From contig CAYMTA010000009.1 in NCBI GenBank assembly GCA_964393275.1, positions 53,544-117,543 of the forward strand: a stretch of DNA of 64,000 bases. Direction: 5' to 3'. The DNA is from an uncultured Geminicoccaceae bacterium (lineage in GTDB: Bacteria > Pseudomonadota > Alphaproteobacteria > Geminicoccales > Geminicoccaceae). Numbering within the stretch: position 1 is the first letter of the stretch; each line of letters starts with the position of its first letter. Shown here in pieces: positions 207 through 8,741 of the stretch. A program made the translations under genes and the position numbers. Below the pieces are notes generated by a model, which was given only the letters and a program-made list of their open reading frames with translations, made no database searches and was not told the origin of the DNA.

Positions 207-449
207 CGTTCAGGGCAGGAACGGCCCCCATGAGGGCATCAGCCAAAAGGCTTAGTGTCGGAAGAACGCTGGCCCCGGCGCCCTGTCGCCATCCTCGATC
301 GACCTCGCGCTCTACCGCTAAGGATAGGTTGTCGCGTCGACTTGTTAATGTTAATCCTTAACCACTTGGCGCATCGCCCGTGGTCTACATGCTGTGGACT
401 AACTACAGTTGAGCGGGGATGGCTTCGACACGACCTAGGGAGTAAACGC

Positions 450-833
450 ATGCGTATGATTGCACTATCGCTCGTCTCGGGCGTTTGCCTGCTGGCCGCG
501 ACATCGGCCAATGCCGAAGGGGTAGCCCTCACCGATCACCAGCTCGACCAGGTGACCGCCGGCGCTCTCGAGCTTGGCGTCAGCCAATTGACGATGGGAA
601 CCATGTCTGCCAGCCGTTCGTTCGTCGCCTCGCCGCTGCTCCGCCAGGCAGTCAATGGCAGCCCAGCGCAACCTGACGAGAACCCACCCGTGCCTGCACA
701 GCCGGGCTTGCTGGAGATCATCTCGGGCGCATACTCCGATCAGAACAACGGCCAAGAGATTAGCAAGGCTCCTGTGCTAGGAAAGCTGTTCCTGTCACTC
801 CAGGTCTTCGGCCAGACTCCTTCTGCCCCATAG
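450..833 (+). CDS. Small secreted protein, VTAG-motif family paralog 1
   Basis: Internal ATG of the tracked ORF 255..833, preceded by GGGAG. Signal peptide MRMIALSLVSGVCLLAATSANA, then EGVALTDHQLDQVTAG (motif nt 528-563). Confidence 0.7.
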   Translation: MRMIALSLVSGVCLLAATSANAEGVALTDHQLDQVTAGALELGVSQLTMGTMSASRSFVASPLLRQAVNGSPAQPDENPPVPAQPGLLEIISGAYSDQNNGQEISKAPVLGKLFLSLQVFGQTPSAP

Positions 834-909
834 CCGCCGTCGGCGCATTGAACCTTGCTCGATGGGATCGAGCCGCTCTGACCAATGCAGAAAAAGGGGG
901 GAAGCCGTT

Positions 910-1356
910 ATGTCGCTCCTGAAAAAGGCGAGCGTTCTGTCAGCCTGTCTGCTGGCGACCGCCTCGATCGCCAACGCCGAGCAGGTCCGGTTGTCCATTG
1001 GCCAACTCGATCATGTCACAGCCGGCGCGATCTCGCCAATCTCGCCAATCTCGTCCATTTCGCCAATCCCGCCGATCGGTGGTGGGGCTGAGGCTCCCTC
1101 GCCCGGGGACCCGCCGGCGTCGACACCTGGACCGTCGGCACCCCCACCGGTTCGACTCACCCGGTCTGTGGGTGATGGCTCGGCTATGGCTTATGTGCCG
1201 ATAACGCCGGCCGGATCGATCACCGAGATCGGTCTCCGCGTCACACCCGGGCCCAATGGAACATCGGGCACCGCCTATGTCCGGGTGTCGTCGGAAGGCG
1301 GCGGCCCGATCACCTTGCCCGGCGTCAGCGCCACGGTTGTCCACAGCGGCAAGTGA
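910..1356 (+). CDS. Small secreted protein, VTAG-motif family paralog 2 (ISP-repeat, Pro-rich)
   Basis: Internal ATG of ORF 862..1356, preceded by GGGGGAAG. Signal peptide MSLLKKASVLSACLLATASIANA, then EQVRLSIGQLDHVTAG (nt 991-1026), followed by ISPISPISSISPIPPI. Confidence 0.7.
   Translation: MSLLKKASVLSACLLATASIANAEQVRLSIGQLDHVTAGAISPISPISSISPIPPIGGGAEAPSPGDPPASTPGPSAPPPVRLTRSVGDGSAMAYVPITPAGSITEIGLRVTPGPNGTSGTAYVRVSSEGGGPITLPGVSATVVHSGK
1030..1077 (+). repeat. Imperfect 9-bp tandem repeat (5 units, ATCTCGCCA-like) encoding (I-S-P)n
   Basis: Read directly: atctcgcca atctcgcca atctcgtcc atttcgcca atcccgccg atc. Confidence 0.8.
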
Positions 1357-1370
1357 GCTCGGATCAACCT

Positions 1371-3581
1371 CTACGTCGAAGCGCGTGATTGGGAGCAAAA
1401 GCGCTCCCACATCACGCGCAAGGCCCTTTCGATCTCGTGCCCAAAGAGCCGCTGATCGCAAAGCGCCGAGCTTGCCATGGCTTGGCGCTGGGCCGCGCGA
1501 TAATCGGCGAGACGCAATGGCTCCGTTGCCAGGCGGATGGCGATAGCAAGGTAGGCATCGGCGTTGCGCGCCACCCATTCCGGACGTCCGATAGCCCGAA
1601 GCAGGGTCTCGGTTTGCCTCGACACAGGCTGCCAGCCAGGCATGGTGACGATCGGCACTCCCATCCACAGGGCTTCGCAGCTCGTCGCCCCACCGCCGAA
1701 TGGAAACGGATCGAGGGCGATATCGACGTCGCCATACTGGCGCAGCACGGCAGCGTTGTCGGAAACACCACGCAGCTCGAGCCTGCCGTCCGAGACTCCG
1801 GCCCCGCGGATGGCCTCGCGTATCCTGGTCGCGACCGATGGATTGTCCAATGACGGCGACTTCAGGATAAGACGGGCAGTTGGCAACCGCTGGAGCAACC
1901 GGCACCAAAGCGCCAGCACTTCTCCTGTGAGCTTCGCCACATTGTTGAAGCTACCGAAGGTGATCCAGCCCTGGCGCAGCACGGGGGGCTCGGCGGGTTC
2001 CGGTGCGGTTGCCGGCGGCTCGTAGCAGAAGCGGCTGGGCGACAGGCGGATTACCCGTTCCGCGAAGAGCCCCTCCTCGCCCGGTGCAACGGCCACCTCG
2101 TCCATGATCGCATAATCGATCGCCTCCAGGCCGGTGGTGAACGGATAACCCAGCCAGGTTGCCTGGACCGGAGCCGGCTTGAGCGCGAAGCACCCGAGCC
2201 GGTTAAGCGCCGTGTGCCCGGATATGTCGATCAGGATGTCGATGCCGTCGGCGCGCACCTGCTCGGCCAAACGCCGATCCTCCATGCCGACGACCAAGCG
2301 CCAGCCATCCGCCAGCTCCTTGAACCGCGCGGTCATATTGTCTTCGCGGCCATTGCTCGAGTAGCAGATCACCGTGAAACGGCTGCGATTGAGCGCACGA
2401 AAAACAGCCATGAGCCAGTCACTTACCGCATGTCGGCAAAGCTCCGCCGAGACGATTCCGACCCGTAAGGGGCGAGTGGGGTCGGGGTCGTTCTGCCACT
2501 CCGTGAAACGGCCTGTCGGCTGGCCGAACCGTCGTCCCCACGCCGCGTGCTCCCGCGCGAGATCCTCCGGATGTTGGCTTGGATCGTAGAGGAGCGTGAG
2601 CAGCAGATTGCTATGGATGCGAGGATCATTCGGATCGATCGCGGAGGCACGCCGCAGGGCCGCCAGCGCATCGTCGATCAAACCCATGTCCCGCTTGATC
2701 TTGCCGATATTGTTGTAGGCGAAGGCGAAGTCGGGGCGTCGGGCCAGCACATCTTCATAACCTGCCAACGCTTCCTCGAAGCGGCCGAGCATCTCCAGCG
2801 TTTGAGCCCGATAGAAACGCGCGTCGAATTTCTCGGGGCTCAGCTCCAAGGCTCGGTCGAACGCAGCGAGCGCCGCCTGTCCCATCCCGTGGTCAATCTC
2901 GACCAGACCCAGCCCAATGAGAGCATAGACCGACTCCTCATGCTCCAGTGCCTGATCGAAGGCGTCCAACCCCTCCGCATAGCGGCCGAGCGCATGCAGG
3001 GCGTAACCCTTTTCGGCCCACGCACGACCGTGCTCCGGCGCACGCAGAAGAACAGCGTCGAGATCGGCGAGCGCGGCGTCGGGCTCTCCGGCGAGGCGCC
3101 GCGCCCCGGCTCGCGCAACGAGAATGTCGATGGAGCCCGGCACGGCCGCTAAGGCGGAATCGGCGGATGCAATGGCGGCTTCGTGTTGTCCGAGCTCCGC
3201 CAGGATGAGGATGCGCCATCGTTGGGCATCGATCATAGTCGGCTCGAGCTCAGTGAGCGACTCGAGCTTCGCCAGGGCGTCAGCACTGCGCCCAAAAGCG
3301 GTGAGGAGGATGGCAAGATTGTGCAAGGCCGAGACATAGCGCGGGTCCAAGGTGATTGCCCGCTCATAGGCTGCTATCGCCTCGGCCGGTTGCCCGATCG
3401 CGGTCAGGATGAACGCCTGAACACCATGGACGCGGGCGTACTCCGGATCCGCTTGGCTCGCCTCTCGCCAAAAGGCCTCGGCGCGGTCGTTCTCTCCCTG
3501 GTTGCACGCCGCCACGGCCAGATCGAGAAGCATGTCCAGCTCCGACCGTTCCCCGGACATCGCATGGCCAACCTCACGCAT
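1371..3581 (-). CDS. TPR-repeat protein with C-terminal GT41 (SPINDLY/O-GlcNAc-transferase-like) glycosyltransferase domain
   Basis: 736 aa with no signal peptide. The N-terminal half has many TPR-like repeats (AxxxYxxAlxldP pattern). The C-terminal half has the OGT/SPY-type pattern (GSFNNxxKL..., LDPFPFGGGATSCEALWMGVPIVT). Confidence 0.85.
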   Translation of the reverse strand: MREVGHAMSGERSELDMLLDLAVAACNQGENDRAEAFWREASQADPEYARVHGVQAFILTAIGQPAEAIAAYERAITLDPRYVSALHNLAILLTAFGRSADALAKLESLTELEPTMIDAQRWRILILAELGQHEAAIASADSALAAVPGSIDILVARAGARRLAGEPDAALADLDAVLLRAPEHGRAWAEKGYALHALGRYAEGLDAFDQALEHEESVYALIGLGLVEIDHGMGQAALAAFDRALELSPEKFDARFYRAQTLEMLGRFEEALAGYEDVLARRPDFAFAYNNIGKIKRDMGLIDDALAALRRASAIDPNDPRIHSNLLLTLLYDPSQHPEDLAREHAAWGRRFGQPTGRFTEWQNDPDPTRPLRVGIVSAELCRHAVSDWLMAVFRALNRSRFTVICYSSNGREDNMTARFKELADGWRLVVGMEDRRLAEQVRADGIDILIDISGHTALNRLGCFALKPAPVQATWLGYPFTTGLEAIDYAIMDEVAVAPGEEGLFAERVIRLSPSRFCYEPPATAPEPAEPPVLRQGWITFGSFNNVAKLTGEVLALWCRLLQRLPTARLILKSPSLDNPSVATRIREAIRGAGVSDGRLELRGVSDNAAVLRQYGDVDIALDPFPFGGGATSCEALWMGVPIVTMPGWQPVSRQTETLLRAIGRPEWVARNADAYLAIAIRLATEPLRLADYRAAQRQAMASSALCDQRLFGHEIERALRVMWERFCSQSRAST

Positions 3582-3643
3582 CCCGTTTCCGCAAGCCTTC
3601 CCAGCTTCCTGTCAAATATAGCAAACGGCAGACGCCCCACGCA

Positions 3644-3682
3644 CAAAAAAGAAGAGCCCCATCTTGTGATGAGGCTCTTCTG
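3644..3682 (-). terminator. Rho-independent terminator downstream of paralog 3
   Basis: On the minus strand: AGAAGAGCC-loop-GGCTCTTCT followed by TTTTTT. A second hairpin AACAGCG/CGCTGTT sits at 3688-3708. Confidence 0.75.
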
Positions 3683-3760
3683 ACTTCAACAGCGATGCAT
3701 CCGCTGTTCTAGGTCAGCCAGGCAACGCTTTCACGTCCCTGCCCGACCCGACAGGATGGC

Positions 3761-4135
3761 TCACGGTTGTGAGAACGACACCGAGCCGCTAACCGCCAAG
3801 GTGCCGCCCGAACGAACCCGACCGTTGTTGTTCAGGGAAGCGGCATCAATCTGGTTGGTGGCATAACCCTGCGTCGTGCGCACCGAGCTGAGCGAGGTGC
3901 CGATGGTGGCCGTGTTCGACGTGTTGCTCTTGCTCTCCGAAATCACGACCGCCTTGGTGGTGTTCCTGGTACGGACAGGACCGGTGATACCGAGGGCCAA
4001 ATCCAGATCCAGGTTGAGACCGGCGGTCACACCGTCCATCTGGCTGGCGCTGAGCTTCATGGGCTCGGCAGCCATGGCGCTGGTCGCCAGCAACGTGACG
4101 GCCGCACCGGCGAGAAACAGATTCTTCATCGACAT
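3761..4135 (-). CDS. Small secreted protein, VTAG-motif family paralog 3 (Ser/Thr/Asn-rich)
   Basis: AGGAGAAG RBS. Signal peptide MSMKNLFLAGAAVTLLATSAMA, then AEPMKLSASQMDGVTAG (nt 4019-4054). The mature part is rich in T/S/N/G/V. Confidence 0.75.
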   Translation of the reverse strand: MSMKNLFLAGAAVTLLATSAMAAEPMKLSASQMDGVTAGLNLDLDLALGITGPVRTRNTTKAVVISESKSNTSNTATIGTSLSSVRTTQGYATNQIDAASLNNNGRVRSGGTLAVSGSVSFSQP

Positions 4136-4212
4136 TGAGGCTTCTCCTAGGTTTTAGTCGGTACCGTCCACGACCGATCCATGTTTCGAAAGGTCAGTCG
4201 AGAACCTCGTGT

Positions 4213-4240
4213 GTCCGGCCGGGCCATTGCCCGGCCGGAC
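4213..4240 (-). terminator. GC-rich stem-loop at the stop of paralog 4 (no U-tract)
   Basis: GTCCGGCCGGG-ccattg-CCCGGCCGGAC, an 11-bp perfect stem abutting the TAG stop. Confidence 0.4.
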
Positions 4241-4593
4241 TAATTCGCAAAAACACCTGTGAGGACGCCACCACCACCAGCAGCCGAGGTGATGCCGACC
4301 CCGCTGGCCTTGACGGAGGTCTGAGAGATGGCGAGCGCCTGAAAGTCACCCGACGAGGACGGCGGCGTCAACAACACGCTTCCCTCCGTCTGGGTCAGCG
4401 AGACCTGATAGAGGGTGATCGACGCGCCGCGGGCTGTCGCCAGTCCCGTGCGAGAAATCGCAAAACCACTCCAGAGACCCGCCGCCGTGACCGAATCCAG
4501 CGATGCTGCATCCAGCCTGACCGGCTCGCCGGCAAGCGCCACGCTGCCGACGCCAAGGAGGGCGATGCCCACAAGTCCGTTCAAGATGCGCAT
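4240..4593 (-). CDS. Small secreted protein, VTAG-motif family paralog 4
   Basis: Internal ATG of ORF 4240..4743. Signal peptide MRILNGLVGIALLGVGSVALA, then GEPVRLDAASLDSVTAAG (nt 4477-4515). Confidence 0.65.
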   Translation of the reverse strand: MRILNGLVGIALLGVGSVALAGEPVRLDAASLDSVTAAGLWSGFAISRTGLATARGASITLYQVSLTQTEGSVLLTPPSSSGDFQALAISQTSVKASGVGITSAAGGGGVLTGVFAN

Positions 4594-4801
4594 GGGTTGA
4601 AACTTTCCTCTGGCACGATCGCAAAGCGACCACGAATTGCTTTCTGTTCCACCCTGACGCGGCCCAACCGCCCTGCAAGCACTGAATCGAAGCGGGAACT
4701 CCAATCCGAACAATAGCTTAGCTGGCTTCTTGGTCGCTGGCAACAGCCCTTTCGGATGATAGCCGAAGGTGGAACACCGGACATACAGGCTTCGAGGTCA
4801 G

Positions 4802-5254
4802 TTAAAAGATCGGGAACTCGCTGGCAACCGATGCCATGCCCACCGCGGCGACCTGCGCCGAGAAGAAGCCGGAGCCGTTAATTCTGACATTGATCGGAAT
4901 GGTCCAGACCTTCTGCCCGACGACATTGGTTGCGCCCACGCTCGCCGTTGCGGACGGCGGTGGTGCCACGCCACCAATGCCTATCGCCTTCGCCACGGCG
5001 ACGCCCTTCGTGACCGACAGCGACGGATTGCTGGTGCCCACCACGGTGCTCTCGAACGAGGCTTCCGAGCCCACGGTGCCCCAGGCTTGAGCGGCACCAT
5101 TCAGCGTGAAGCCGGAGACGGCGCCCGCGGTCACCGAGTCCATCTGGACCGCGTCGAGCCGCATGGGCTCGGCGGCCTGCGACGAGACGAGCGGCAGCGC
5201 CACACCCAAGGCGGCCAGCAGCGCCGCCCTCTTGGGGAAACCGGAAATCCGCAT
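4802..5254 (-). CDS. Small secreted protein, VTAG-motif family paralog 5
   Basis: Internal ATG of ORF 4802..5314. Signal peptide MRISGFPKRAALLAALGVALPLVSSQA, then AEPMRLDAVQMDSVTAG (nt 5123-5158). The C-terminus ends in ...EFPIF. Confidence 0.7.
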   Translation of the reverse strand: MRISGFPKRAALLAALGVALPLVSSQAAEPMRLDAVQMDSVTAGAVSGFTLNGAAQAWGTVGSEASFESTVVGTSNPSLSVTKGVAVAKAIGIGGVAPPPSATASVGATNVVGQKVWTIPINVRINGSGFFSAQVAAVGMASVASEFPIF

Positions 5255-5404
5255 CGCGTTCACCTCTCTATACTTCTCTGTCTCAGGCCGTCCTGGCCGA
5301 AGGAACCCATCCAACCGATCGCCCCGACATCTAAAATCCGGAGGCCGTGGTGATCAGAACCTTGTGTGGGGAAGATGCCAGCATTTTCCCCAATCGCGCA
5401 ACTT

Positions 5405-5431
5405 GTTCAAAAGGTCATACGACTTTTGAAC
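5405..5431. promoter_or_regulatory. Perfect 9-bp inverted repeat GTTCAAAAG-N9-CTTTTGAAC in the divergent low-GC intergenic region
   Basis: Read directly. Lies between paralog 5 (minus) and the C39 peptidase gene (plus). The TTAAGCTTAA palindrome at 5451-5460 is nearby. Confidence 0.5.
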
Positions 5432-5737
5432 CATTGAGCCGCGTCGAGGATTAAGCTTAACAGCCCGACACTTAATGGCTGGATGGAACAAGGAGTGATT
5501 TAAACTTATAGTTTAATCGCATCAGCCGCCGATGAACTTCTCGCATCGGGCTGGCACAGCCTGCCATGCCGGGAGCGCCGACGGACAGGCGATTCTTCGG
5601 GTCTGGGGCGCCAGATGGTTGCTTGGTCGCCCGGCGTGGCATTAGGGTAACGACCGGTCGCGTTCGCCATGAGCGGCATGCGCGGGAGTTGACCGTTTCG
5701 ACGGTTGATCTCTATCCCGCGTGGAGGAGGGAAAGTT

Positions 5738-6367
5738 TTGACGCACGCGAGCAGGCGGAGGTTTCTCGTCGGCGGTGCTCTTTTGGCGATGGGCGCTACC
5801 ACGCCGGGCTTAGCCGCGGCGCGGTCGGTCGAGAGCCTCAACGAGCGGCGCCACCATCAGGTCGTGATTCAGGAATTCGACATCAGTTGCGCCGCCGCCG
5901 CGCTGGCGACGCTGCTGACCTATCAGCATGGCGACCCCGTAACCGAGCGCCAGATCGCGCTGGGTCTGATCGATCGGCCGGAATACATCGAGAACCCGGC
6001 CTTGATCCGCCTGCGTCAGGGCTTCTCGCTGCTCGACCTGAAGCGCTTCGTGGATGGCCGTGGCTACGAGGGCATCGGCTTCGGCCAGCTCAGCTACAGC
6101 GATCTGCTCGAGCGGGCGCCGATCATCGTGCCACTCGACCTGCACGGCTTTCGACATTTCGTGGTTTTTCGTGGCGAGCTGGGCGACAGCGTCCTGCTCG
6201 CCGACCCGGCTTTCGGCAATCGCACCATGAGCCGGGAACGGTTCGAGCAGGCCTGGATCGATTTCCCGCAGATCGGCCGGGTCGGCTTTGTCGTCGAGCG
6301 GCGCGATGGCCTGATTCCGCCGAACCGCCTGGAGCCGACCTTGGCCGAGTTCCTCGTCATTCGCTGA
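5738..6367 (+). CDS. Stand-alone periplasmic C39-family cysteine peptidase (Tat signal)
   Basis: TTG start 6 nt after GGAGGAGGG. N-terminus is THASRRRFLVGGALLAMGATTPGLAAA (twin-arginine). Has the catalytic-type pattern QEFDISCAAAALATLL (Gln...Cys), and later HFVVF and ADP (His/Asp). Confidence 0.8.
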   Translation: MTHASRRRFLVGGALLAMGATTPGLAAARSVESLNERRHHQVVIQEFDISCAAAALATLLTYQHGDPVTERQIALGLIDRPEYIENPALIRLRQGFSLLDLKRFVDGRGYEGIGFGQLSYSDLLERAPIIVPLDLHGFRHFVVFRGELGDSVLLADPAFGNRTMSRERFEQAWIDFPQIGRVGFVVERRDGLIPPNRLEPTLAEFLVIR

Positions 6368-6391
6368 CCCTCATCAGAAGTGGTAGACTTC

Positions 6392-7570
6392 ATGCACCGT
6401 CGGCAACCGACCTCGACACGAGCACCGAACCTGCGGATCACGACCGTGGCGACGGCCGCCCTGCTGCTGCATTTGTCCGGCCCCGTCGCGGCCCAGGACA
6501 CAGGCACGGTCAGCGACCAGACCCTGCAGGAGGAGCTCAAGGCTCGCGACGCCGTGATCATCGAGCTGATGCACCGGGTCGACGAGCTCGAGCGGCGGCT
6601 GGGGGGAACGGAGGCGCCACCGGTCGCGGCGAAGGCCGCGCCGGCCCAGCCCGGGGAAGCACCGCCACCGGTCGAATCCGCCGAGGCGCCAGCCCCGGCA
6701 CCCGCCTCTCGTGGCCTGATCGATGTCGACGAGCTCGCCGCGGAGCGTGCGCTGGAGCGCACCCTGGTCGATGTGGGCGCGCTATTGCTGCCCGCCGGCC
6801 AGTCGGAGCTCGCGCCGGCGGCCGGCTTCACGCGACGCGATTCGAACTTCCCCACCCTCATCGGCGGGCAGGTCGTCAATGCGAACACCGAGCGCAACGA
6901 ATTCGCCTTCGACCTGGGCCTGAGCGTCGGACTGCCCTTCGATTCGCAGTTCGAGCTCAACCTGCCGTTCGATCTGGTCAACGAGCAGGGCAATCTGGAC
7001 ATCAACGGGGGCGTCGCGAGCTCAACCGAGCGCACCGGCTACGGGCTCGGTGACATCACGCTCGGCTTTGCCAAGACGCTGCTGCGCGAGGGTGAATGGC
7101 GGCCCGACCTCGTCGGCCGCGTCGTCTGGGACACGGCCACGGGCGATCAATTCGACGACGGGGTCTACCTCGGCAACGGCTTTCACCAGGTCAGCGGGCA
7201 GCTCGTCGCCGTCAAGCGCCAGGACCCGCTCGCCTTCGTCGGCGGCTTCACCTACAGCTACGCGTTCGAGGACGACGATATCAAGCTGGGCAGCGAGTAT
7301 GCCTTGTCGCTGGGCGCGGCCCTGGCCCTCAGCCCCGAGACATCGCTGAACGTCGCCCTCAATCAGACCTATTCCGACGATATCGAGGTCGACGGCGAGA
7401 AGGTCAACGGCAGCGATCAGCTGGCCGCCAGCTTCGACTTCGGCGGCTCGGCGATTATCGCGCCGCGCACGCTCTTCAGGTTGAACACCAGCATCGGCCT
7501 GACCGATGACGCGCCCGACTACTCCGTCCGCGCCACGGTTGCCTACCGCTTCAACACACCATTCTTCTGA
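6392..7570 (+). CDS. Outer-membrane beta-barrel protein with N-terminal coiled coil and Ala/Pro linker (FapF-like / MetA-pathway-type barrel architecture)
   Basis: Signal peptide ...LLLHLSGPVAAQD. Heptad-like segment DQTLQEELKARDAVIIELMHRVDELERRL, then an AP-rich linker. Alternating beta-strand pattern ending ...ATVAYRFNTPFF with a terminal Phe. A GTG at 6380 is an alternative start. Confidence 0.7.
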   Translation: MHRRQPTSTRAPNLRITTVATAALLLHLSGPVAAQDTGTVSDQTLQEELKARDAVIIELMHRVDELERRLGGTEAPPVAAKAAPAQPGEAPPPVESAEAPAPAPASRGLIDVDELAAERALERTLVDVGALLLPAGQSELAPAAGFTRRDSNFPTLIGGQVVNANTERNEFAFDLGLSVGLPFDSQFELNLPFDLVNEQGNLDINGGVASSTERTGYGLGDITLGFAKTLLREGEWRPDLVGRVVWDTATGDQFDDGVYLGNGFHQVSGQLVAVKRQDPLAFVGGFTYSYAFEDDDIKLGSEYALSLGAALALSPETSLNVALNQTYSDDIEVDGEKVNGSDQLAASFDFGGSAIIAPRTLFRLNTSIGLTDDAPDYSVRATVAYRFNTPFF

Positions 7571-8351
7571 CGGCCGCGAGGTGGCGTTGCGCCAGGAGCG
7601 CCACCTCGGTCCGGTTCTTGGCATTCAGTCGCCGCATGATCTGCCGGACATGCACCTTGACGGTGCTCTCGGTCATCCGCAGGCGGGTGGCGATCACCTT
7701 GTTCGGATGCCCTTCCTGGAGGATCTCCAGAACATCGACCTGCCGCGGCGTCAGCTCTTGTGACAGCGCCGGGCCGTCCGGGGCCGACTCGCTCGCCACG
7801 TCGCCGAGGGCGGGACGTCCCTCCTGCCTGAGCCACTGGCTGACGAGATCGCCCGGCACGAACATGCCGCCGGCCTGCACCAGGGACAGCGCCCTGCACA
7901 TCAGCGGCGCCTCCTCGGAGGTCGCGATGAAACCCATCGCACCGGCCGCCAGGGCGTTGCGCGCCTCCTCCGGCTCGGTGCGATCGGACAGCACGACCAC
8001 CGGCACCGAGTCGTGGTTGCCGACGAGGCGATCGAGGTCCGCGCGGGTGGCCGGGTCGTCGATCGACAGGCTGCCGACACTGTAGATGATCAGCGAGGGC
8101 CGGCCTTCCGGGGGCAGACCCTCGCGGGTCAGCTCGTCGACGGACACGGCGACGATCTGCTGGCTGAGCGCATCCGAGGCGCAGAGATAGCGCGAGATGC
8201 AAACCCGGCTGAACGGCCGGGGGTCGACGAGAGCCAGCCAGGGGTCGGGGCGCGGGGCAACCCCTGCTGGGACCGCACGAATCGCCCCGGAGGCTCTCGT
8301 TAGGGTGTCAGTGCCTGGCAGTGGATTGTTCGCTGATGACGTCGCTAACAT
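7551..8351 (-). CDS. LuxR/FixJ-type transcriptional regulator with degenerate receiver-like N-terminal domain
   Basis: C-terminal HTH: LTPRQVDVLEILQEGHPNKVIATRLRMTESTVKVHVRQIMRRLNAKNRTE. The ATG at 8351 is preceded by AAGGGGAG. The receiver-like region lacks an obvious DD pair or phospho-Asp context. Confidence 0.75.
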   Translation of the reverse strand: MLATSSANNPLPGTDTLTRASGAIRAVPAGVAPRPDPWLALVDPRPFSRVCISRYLCASDALSQQIVAVSVDELTREGLPPEGRPSLIIYSVGSLSIDDPATRADLDRLVGNHDSVPVVVLSDRTEPEEARNALAAGAMGFIATSEEAPLMCRALSLVQAGGMFVPGDLVSQWLRQEGRPALGDVASESAPDGPALSQELTPRQVDVLEILQEGHPNKVIATRLRMTESTVKVHVRQIMRRLNAKNRTEVALLAQRHLAAVRRMVC

Positions 8352-8741
8352 GATCGTCTCGCTCCCCTTCGATCCCGGCAACCAAAGTGGTAGGCGGAAC
8401 CCTTGCAGCTACGGGGCACTTAACCCTACCGATCGAGACGAGCATCTCCGGTAGAGTCTTTATGCTTAAGGCGCATTAATACAATCGATGAAATCGTCAT
8501 CTTTTGCAAGGGAGTATCGCTCACTCCCGCTGTAGAATAGTACCTACGGCGATGTTCAACCATCGGGCAATCGGCGCAATGACGCTGCGCCTTAATCGTC
8601 CATTAGCTTCATGGAATATCTCCGACTTAACCAAAGGTAGTGGGCCGCAGGTGAGAAAGCTCGCGGTACGATCGAATGCTCCTGCCGACGCACGTCGCCC
8701 GGCAATTGCCGCGTTCACGCTACGGTTGCTGTTTTCACATT

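Follow-up and report, generated by a model that had tools for sequence, protein, structure and literature searches.

How a channel in the outer membrane is matched with the proteins that it carries is the question raised by a locus in a 64,000-nucleotide stretch of DNA from an uncultured Geminicoccaceae bacterium (contig CAYMTA010000009.1, positions 53,544 to 117,543), hereafter called the window. A gene at 6392..7570 encodes an outer-membrane barrel protein, the gene immediately upstream encodes a C39 cysteine peptidase, and beside the pair lie genes for five small proteins that share a conserved tag behind their signal peptides. Judged by its homologues and its gene neighbourhood, the barrel gene probably encodes the outer-membrane translocon of a two-step protein secretion module resembling the Fap system, and the barrel and the peptidase most likely export the five adjacent small proteins.

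The barrel gene and the parts of its product are as follows.

6392..7570, + strand: FapF-like outer-membrane channel gene (from the list of open reading frames, PF13557, PDB searches, Foldseek and hhalign)
6392..6505, + strand: signal peptide, amino acids 1–38, with an Arg-rich n-region, hydrophobic TTVATAALLLHLSG and PVAA followed by QD (read from the sequence)
6515..6604, + strand: periplasmic coiled-coil helix, amino acids 42–71 (DQTLQEELKARDAVIIELMHRVDELERRL), modelled as a helix with a predicted local distance difference test score (pLDDT) of about 80–87 and showing a 3.5-residue periodicity
6605..6730, + strand: flexible linker rich in Ala, Pro and Glu, amino acids 72–113 (pLDDT below 50, composition)
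6731..6775, + strand: candidate plug helix, amino acids 114–128 (DELAAERALERTLVD), from the modelled helix and its conservation
6800..7567, + strand: beta-barrel domain, amino acids 137–392, ending PFF (strands, alignment with FapF)

The protein has 392 amino acids when read from the ATG at 6392 to the stop codon at 7568–7570, and an alternative GTG start lies at 6380. The ATG fits the orthologues, which are 83–99% identical and called at 390–393 amino acids; one of them, P0001, is 99% identical and also has 392. Every segment named in the original prediction, namely a signal peptide, a heptad helix, an Ala/Pro/Glu linker, a short helix and a barrel with a PFF end, is present both in the sequence and in an AlphaFold2 monomer model built on a 69-sequence alignment (mean pLDDT 82.6). 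In this model, the signal-peptide helix spans residues 14–28 and the beta-strands between residues 137 and 388 exceed a pLDDT of 90. Signal peptidase would be expected to cut between V-A-A and Q, near residue 38. The linker varies from 31 to 80 residues across homologues (median 46) and consists of 25% Ala, 23% Pro and 10% Glu. The protein ends in ...YRFNTPFF, and Phe is the last residue in 42 of the 69 homologues.

The barrel protein is a homologue of FapF by both sequence and structure. It passes the threshold of PF13557 (Phenol_MetA_deg), the Pfam family that had been named for it, with 41.6 bits against a gathering threshold of 22 (E 2e-10; residues 150–387 on model positions 6–242 of 242). 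When the PDB was searched with the protein itself (phmmer), FapF was the sole significant match (E 4.9e-7), and a profile of the family matched FapF over the whole barrel to the last residue (E 6.5e-19). The COG4313 channel 4rl8 appeared in neither of these sequence searches. Alignment with full-length Pseudomonas FapF by hhalign gave a probability of 99.5% and an E-value of 5.5e-23 (residues 125–391 on 119–430), and the motifs GD and GxTDDAPD[YF] are common to FapF and the barrel family. Similarly, the best 18 Foldseek matches of the model in the PDB are all FapF chains (5o65/5o67/5o68), with E-values of 2.4e-18 to 2.9e-14, template modelling (TM) scores normalised to the target of 0.76–0.84, and root-mean-square deviations (rmsd) of 2.5–5.3 Å; FapF-beta (5o65) matches at E 2.4e-18, TM 0.81 and rmsd 2.9 Å. 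Next comes 4rl8 (E 1.9e-13, TM 0.74), and all other matches have E-values weaker by six or more orders of magnitude and TM scores under 0.6. The structural similarity to FapF-type barrels on which the original prediction had been made to depend is therefore found by Foldseek, and hhalign and the family profile agree at the level of sequence.

The order of the domains also agrees with that of FapF, as had been proposed. In FapF, a coiled coil (D3–Q40) is followed by a disordered linker (P41–L82) and then by the plug and barrel (K83–F406) (PMC5557850), and the modelled protein repeats this order, with helix 114–128 as the candidate plug. This helix precedes the first strand and lies in the best-conserved stretch of the family, in which D113, R119, A120, L121, E122, L125, G129 and L132 are invariant. 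The C-terminal end of this helix aligns to the plug region of FapF (hhalign), and the FapF stretch aligned there contains the plug residue F103 of the mature protein, mutated in 5o67, according to our own mapping of the numbering.

The N-terminal region, where disorder would have counted against the proposal, is instead predicted to be helical. In a hydrophobicity profile of the 69 sequences, residues 42–71 reach a power of 47.7 at a period of 3.5, a value attained by 27 of 5000 shuffles; the heptad pattern exceeds chance. Its a and d positions are occupied by L45, L49, R52, I56, L59, V63, L66 and L70. Towards its end, R62-V-D-E-L-E67 fits the motif R-h-x-x-h-E, and R62, L66 and E67 are conserved in at least 96% of the 69 homologues. 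The same motif promotes trimerisation near the C-terminal end of the FapF coiled coil, where mutation of the Arg destabilises the trimer (PMC6173795). By analogy, the barrel protein may form a trimer through its coiled coil.

The gene immediately before the barrel gene is the second component of the proposed module.

5705..6367, + strand: stand-alone exported C39 cysteine peptidase (PF03412, E 2e-10)

The original prediction had placed this gene 25 nucleotides upstream of the barrel gene. The adjacency stands, but the figure is a difference between coordinates: the peptidase frame ends at 6367, which leaves 24 intergenic bases (6368–6391) before the barrel ATG. The peptidase itself is likely to start at the TTG at 5738, with GGAGGAGG 7 nucleotides upstream, a start which gives MTHASRRRFLVGG, a Tat-like signal (SRRRFLVGG). 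The RR motif occurs in only 14 of 78 peptidase homologues; Tat export is therefore not general, and the export route of the family seems to vary between Tat and Sec. Among curated families, the peptidase comes closest to FilB (E 4e-28) and FapD (E 2e-25), and it scores below the equivalog cutoffs of both (98.5 against 475 bits for FilB; the FapD cutoff is 330 bits). It also matches the double-glycine protease domain of LahT (6mpz, E 2e-3). Q56, C62, H151 and D167 are conserved in 97–100% of the 78 homologues, with C62 and H151 invariant.

The pairing recurs well beyond the window. A set of 85 sources was compiled, comprising the window and 84 fetched homologous loci (numbered with an L below), and in 73 of these a C39 gene lies directly upstream of the barrel gene on the same strand, often in overlapping or near-touching frames. 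A C39 neighbour of the barrel parallels FapD of the fap system. Among 1.84 billion cluster representatives (clusters defined at 50% identity), the barrel family comprises 348 clusters at E<=1e-30, 710 at 1e-10 and 1324 at 1e-3. When one genome per GTDB species was scanned, at least 191 species genomes were found to carry a relative of the barrel. Relatives within the Geminicoccaceae are 82–87% identical to it, and other carriers include Defluviicoccus, Methylobacter, Nitrosomonas, Nitrosospira, Nitrococcus, Sulfuriferula, Thiocapsa, Pseudohalioglobus and Porphyrobacter. The pairing of peptidase and barrel spans the Alpha-, Beta- and Gammaproteobacteria. Many of the related loci were taken from metagenome bins, which makes their taxonomic assignment provisional. 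Two contigs, L055 and L072, were binned as ‘Bathyarchaeota archaeon’ and ‘Mycobacteriaceae’, respectively, though both carry this diderm outer-membrane module; they are probably mis-binned proteobacterial contigs.

What such a pair might export is suggested by the small proteins beside it. In each of the five in the window, a Sec-type signal peptide is followed at once by a 16-residue segment of the form E-P-V-x-L-[ST]-x-x-Q-[ML]-D-x-V-T-A-G. The scores given below are those of a hidden Markov model (HMM) of this leader.

450..833, + strand: predicted cargo 1, 127 amino acids, leader GVALTDHQLDQVTAG (27.6 bits)
910..1356, + strand: predicted cargo 2, 148 amino acids, leader QVRLSIGQLDHVTAG, with a Pro-rich mature part (28.6 bits)
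3761..4135, - strand: predicted cargo 3, 124 amino acids, leader PMKLSASQMDGVTAG (29.7 bits)
4240..4593, - strand: predicted cargo 4, 117 amino acids, leader PVRLDAASLDSVTAAG (27.2 bits)
4802..5254, - strand: predicted cargo 5, 150 amino acids, leader PMRLDAVQMDSVTAG (33.2 bits)
Candidate leader peptide for the mature peptidase: EPMRLDAVQMDSVTAGAVSG

The leader HMM was seeded from the family itself, with 17 segments from four sources (the window and three related loci), although 69 of the 73 sources in which it found a match had contributed no seeds. Across the 14,808 open reading frames (ORFs) of the 85 sources (1.83 million residues), it gave 203 matches of at least 8 bits, against one in the reversed control. 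The 73 positive sources have at least one match and usually two to seven. These matches are concentrated near the barrel gene: 157 of 179 strong ones lie upstream of it, at a median distance of 1.8 kb, and in the whole window only the five cargo ORFs, at 234–5353, score at all.

The tag resembles the leaders that C39 domains recognise elsewhere. The consensus of double-glycine leaders, as found in class II bacteriocins and in the substrates of PCATs, is L-S-x-x-E-L-x-x-I-x-G-G. Among 173 non-redundant tagged sequences, position -14 is V, L, M or I, -12 is L (161 sequences), -11 is T or S, -8 is Q (110) or E, -7 is M or L, -6 is D (160), -4 is V (147), -3 is T or S, -2 is A (168), and -1 is G (141) or A. 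Positions -12, -7 and -4 of the tag are therefore conserved, -8 is acidic or an amide, and -2 and -1 are small, with Ala rather than Gly at -2. As far as sequence can tell, the spacing of positions -12, -11, -8, -7, -4, -2 and -1 is that of a double-glycine leader. Among the orthologues of cargo 3, the signal peptide and the leader (together the first 39 residues) hardly vary while the mature part diverges, as would be expected of a processing signal. One other candidate site, the G-G at residues 71–72 after the coiled coil of the barrel protein, was considered for self-cleavage and set aside, as it is not conserved in the family and has neither the -4 nor the -12 residue.

Behind the tag, the mature parts of the 173 sequences have a median length of 83 amino acids, Ala, Gly, Ser and Thr together make up 47% of their residues, and exactly two Cys occur in 39 of them. 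Searches of Pfam and NCBIfam (E up to 0.1) placed the five cargo proteins of the window in no family, FapBC included. Neither did 10 cargo proteins from other loci (Pfam and NCBIfam) or a 49-member set (Pfam only) belong to any family; the sole exception in these scans was a sub-threshold match to DUF6160 (E 0.0075).

Several subgroups are visible among the tagged sequences. One distinct and well-conserved subclass, with AAGG at the end of the leader and V[DE]xVDGFVCPVI…TDYTAIW behind it, recurs in distant genomes, and its L016 member, the one that was scanned, has no Pfam or NCBIfam family.

AAGG subclass members: L016 8517–8894, L018 382–750, L024 4063–4539, L027 8692–9174, L051 8764–9162 and L055 3617–3982

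In a second group, comprising the window ORF at 910–1356 (+ strand), L002 1624–2876 and L008 3482–4927, long Pro runs (in L002 2430–2876, as many as about 14 Pro in a row) or I-S-P repeats precede Gly runs and a short hydrophobic tail, unlike the Gly/Ala/Ser/Thr-rich majority of cargo. The tag is also found in barrel proteins themselves. Four barrel paralogues (L017 5742–7763, L034 9386–10966, L040 1183–3030 and L044 1461–3344) carry a cargo leader straight after their own coiled coil, in the form V-A/V-L-S-S-G-D-L-D-R-V-T/V-A-G, and three of the four have no adjacent C39 gene. This placement suggests that the peptidase can cut the coiled coil off such channels, and it is reminiscent of a cut by FapD in the linker of FapF, which has been proposed (PMC5557850).

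The closest characterised parallel to this arrangement is the fap system. The barrel is homologous to FapF and shares its order of signal peptide, coiled coil, disordered linker, plug helix (here a candidate) and barrel (PMC5557850), with R-h-x-x-h-E near the C-terminal end of the coiled coil (PMC6173795). In both systems, an exported stand-alone C39 peptidase with conserved Cys and His is encoded alongside, and the cargo depends on Sec, as predicted here from the signal peptides. The differences are also clear. The two barrels are only about 22% identical, and that of the window has shorter extracellular loops. The core of the FapF coiled coil has Gln layers, whereas the window family has an invariant R52-D53. 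In fap operons, fapE lies between fapD and fapF, but here the peptidase gene directly precedes the barrel gene. Lastly, only here does every cargo protein carry an explicit double-glycine-type leader.

This last difference was examined in 67 fap loci (one operon and 66 further fapE loci; 439,120 residues). The 16-residue leader HMM reached at most 5.1 bits there, against 4.5 in reversed sequences, and an HMM of the first 13 residues reached 4.4 bits, against 5.4 reversed. Since neither rises meaningfully above its reversed control, the explicit tag belongs to the barrel family and not to canonical Fap. FapE orthologues (L085 6205–6951 and L086–L151; 45 distinct N-termini, 55–94% identical) do share a conserved stretch right behind the signal peptide, FKPIE[ILMV]KDxE[LM]x[EDQ]LRG[RK][YF]VMPG, whose position and hydrophobic spacing resemble those of the cargo leader. 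Homology between the two is not claimed, as the resemblance has no statistical support from the leader HMM against reversed sequences. The FapE segment could be the one that FapD recognises. Secretion through FapF requires the catalytic Cys of FapD, itself a C39 peptidase of the periplasm, and what this enzyme recognises has been unclear since 2017 (PMC5557850); a review of December 2025 describes it as ‘thought to’ process FapE and FapF (PMC12822426).

Other systems share single components with the locus. FilB of the Acinetobacter Fil system (NF050078) is the best curated match of the peptidase, and FilC is likewise a barrel paired with a C39 peptidase, but the pair in the window falls far below the FilB and FilC cutoffs. 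Fil fimbriae are surface fibres made of FilA (PMC3498257, PMC11784438). The PCATs (LahT, ComA, PCAT1) have in common with the locus a C39 fold with Gln, Cys, His and Asp, together with the spacing of the leader. However, the peptidase is here free and exported, whereas that of a PCAT is the N-terminal domain of the ABC exporter and lies in the cytoplasm; the leader stands behind a Sec signal peptide, rather than at the start of the protein, and ends in A-G; and passage of the outer membrane would use a FapF-type barrel, not TolC. The COG4313 channel Pput2725 (4rl8) resembles the barrel protein in its PF13557 family and in the barrel itself (TM 0.74). It is a small-molecule uptake channel and is not known to have a coiled coil, linker or C39 partner. 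In the literature on Fil, FapF-like proteins, PF13557 and periplasmic C39 peptidases, no description of a module of this kind was found.

Two further genes flank or interrupt the locus.

1371..3581, - strand: protein with TPR families and a GT41 glycosyltransferase domain, among the cargo genes (PF13844, E 7e-44, and TPR families)
7551..8381, - strand: LuxR/GerE-type regulator, convergent with the barrel gene (PF00196, E 4e-17)

The GT41 gene, which weakly matches a model of HMW1C-type N-glucosyltransferases (1e-12), is present in 16 of the 85 sources, including L001 and L002 at the same position, and appears to be a clade-specific accessory. N-x-S/T sequons occur in the mature part of four of the five cargo proteins in the window, and the enzyme may glycosylate cargo ahead of Sec export. 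The regulator gene overlaps the 3' end of the barrel gene by 20 nucleotides, in an arrangement shared with L001 and L002, and its product weakly matches the NCBIfam model of CsgD (5e-10). A 9-bp inverted repeat, GAGGTGGCG…CGCCACCTC, lies at 7578–7607, just past the barrel stop codon; a scan of 5250–7800 for promoters and terminators gave nothing above the expectation from shuffles. At the other end of the locus, positions 1–150 of the window (+ strand, frame 1) encode the C-terminal end of a large protein with the tail …IDIREGLAVASDGFVDGDFQVQVA…, which matches the end of a cadherin/Big_9-repeat protein of about 980 amino acids that occupies the same place in L001 (1092–4022) and L002 (1–752). 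This giant adhesin-like neighbour may be part of the same surface-structure locus. No ABC/PCAT, usher or type II secretion system exporter is encoded within 14 kb of the window start.

From these components, a route for the cargo can be proposed. The five small proteins would cross the inner membrane by Sec and lose their signal peptides, whereupon the periplasmic C39 peptidase would bind the leader and cut after A-G. The unfolded, Gly/Ala/Ser/Thr-rich mature chain would then traverse the barrel, gated by helix 114–128, which would be tethered via the linker to a trimeric coiled coil hanging into the periplasm. This coiled coil may also dock the peptidase or the cargo. Because the periplasm offers no source of ATP, the driving force for export would be folding or assembly on the outside of the cell, as has been proposed for Fap and curli. 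The secreted products would most likely be subunits of a surface fibre or matrix, which is the weakest step of the proposal. It is suggested by analogy with Fap amyloid and Fil fimbriae (PMC5557850, PMC3498257), by the several paralogous cargo genes per locus (up to seven), and by the LuxR-type regulator and the cadherin-like protein that adjoin the locus.

The same machinery might instead release diffusible antimicrobial or signalling peptides, similar to microcins or class II bacteriocins, once C39 cleavage has freed them. Double-glycine spacing is the hallmark of those precursors of bacteriocins and microcins that C39 domains cleave, the LahT domain is among the matches of the peptidase, and the mature parts are short, rich in small residues, sometimes furnished with two Cys, and fast-evolving. 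Nevertheless, no immunity-like gene, ABC exporter or bacteriocin-type modification enzyme was seen in the window, L001 or L002, and both characterised relatives of the pair, Fap (PMC5557850) and Fil (PMC3498257), build surface fibres. As many as seven cargo paralogues, a large cadherin-like adhesin and a LuxR-type regulator are also more like a surface-structure locus, and cargo of the diffusible kind is considered unlikely.

It is less plausible still that, once cut by the C39 peptidase, the small proteins stay in the periplasm or outer membrane, with the barrel exporting another protein, such as the cadherin-repeat protein, or serving as a scaffold. Proximity of the genes is by itself no proof that the channel carries the small proteins, the aromatic C-termini of several (…EFPIF, …VFLF) resemble an outer-membrane targeting signal, and L001 and L002 both retain the large repeat protein as a neighbour. 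However, the cadherin-like neighbour and the glycosyltransferase are found in a minority of loci, whereas the peptidase–barrel pair and leader-bearing small ORFs co-occur across classes. Moreover, a 12-strand pore of the FapF type carries unfolded chains (PMC5557850) and would be ill-suited to a folded repeat adhesin of this size.

Finally, it is very unlikely that hydrophobic small molecules are taken up passively through the barrel (COG4313/‘MetA-pathway of phenol degradation’), with the peptidase adjacent for unrelated reasons: the Pfam threshold that it passes is that of PF13557 and the Pseudomonas putida channel 4rl8 is its next-best structural match, but FapF is the better match in both sequence and structure, the long linker and the R-h-x-x-h-E motif in the coiled coil are as described for FapF (PMC5557850, PMC6173795), the C39 gene is immediately upstream in most sources, and no genes of aromatic catabolism lie nearby in the window, L001 or L002.

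The proposal that the barrel secretes the tagged proteins must also be set against a number of observations that weigh on the other side. Secretion, cleavage, trimer formation and gating are all inferred from homology and gene neighbourhood. The NCBIfam equivalog model of FapF (NF058560) gives 55.5 bits against a cutoff of 700 (E 4e-15) and covers residues 165–387 only, and that of FilC (NF050079) gives 23 bits against 630, over residues 299–379 only. Gln layers have been reported in the coiled coils of all FapF homologues (PMC6173795), but no Gln occupies any a or d position of residues 42–71, where the invariant R52-D53 stands mid-helix instead. Pfam and NCBIfam scans of the window found no homologues of FapA, FapB/C or FapE. 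Given the FapF score, the missing Gln core layers and the lack of these Fap proteins, the barrel protein is a distant relative of FapF, on a separate branch with a shared architecture, and not an orthologue.

The link between peptidase and cargo has its own counterweights. An adjacent C39 gene is lacking in about 12 of the 85 sources and a leader match in about 12, some of these contigs being truncated. The tag ends in A-G, not G-G, and sits after a Sec signal peptide, so that its recognition by a C39 enzyme is proposed by analogy only. An AlphaFold2 model of cargo 3, built on a nine-sequence alignment, has a pLDDT of 41.8 and no confident fold (leader residues 30–37 are modelled as a helix, with a pLDDT of only about 50–55), and neither a fibre-like repeat nor an amyloid signature has been demonstrated for the cargo.

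On balance, the best reading of the module is as a widespread, undescribed variant of FapD/FapF two-step secretion in which the cargo bears an explicit cleavage tag. The fuller claim, that the locus represents a widespread and undescribed pathway of the Proteobacteria that leads from Sec, by way of a free C39 peptidase in the periplasm, to a trimeric channel of the FapF type, with cargo marked by a 16-residue double-glycine-type propeptide, is given an even chance of being correct.

FapF and FapD form the only structurally characterised exporter of this kind. The barrel family pairs the same two components with an explicit putative cleavage tag, conserved across three proteobacterial classes, and because the tag is explicit and conserved, the questions of recognition and coupling can be tested directly, for example, with a synthetic peptide. 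It also flags hundreds of small secreted proteins for which neither Pfam nor NCBIfam has a family at present, and a compact, ATP-independent, tag-directed exporter could serve the secretion of small recombinant proteins. If the proposal is true, it would give the recognition code of peptidases of the FapD/FilB class, extend Fap-like secretion well past the Pseudomonas amyloid and into environmentally important groups, and bring to light many new families of small secreted proteins, which may form fibres, in nitrifiers, methanotrophs, sulfur oxidisers and the Geminicoccaceae.

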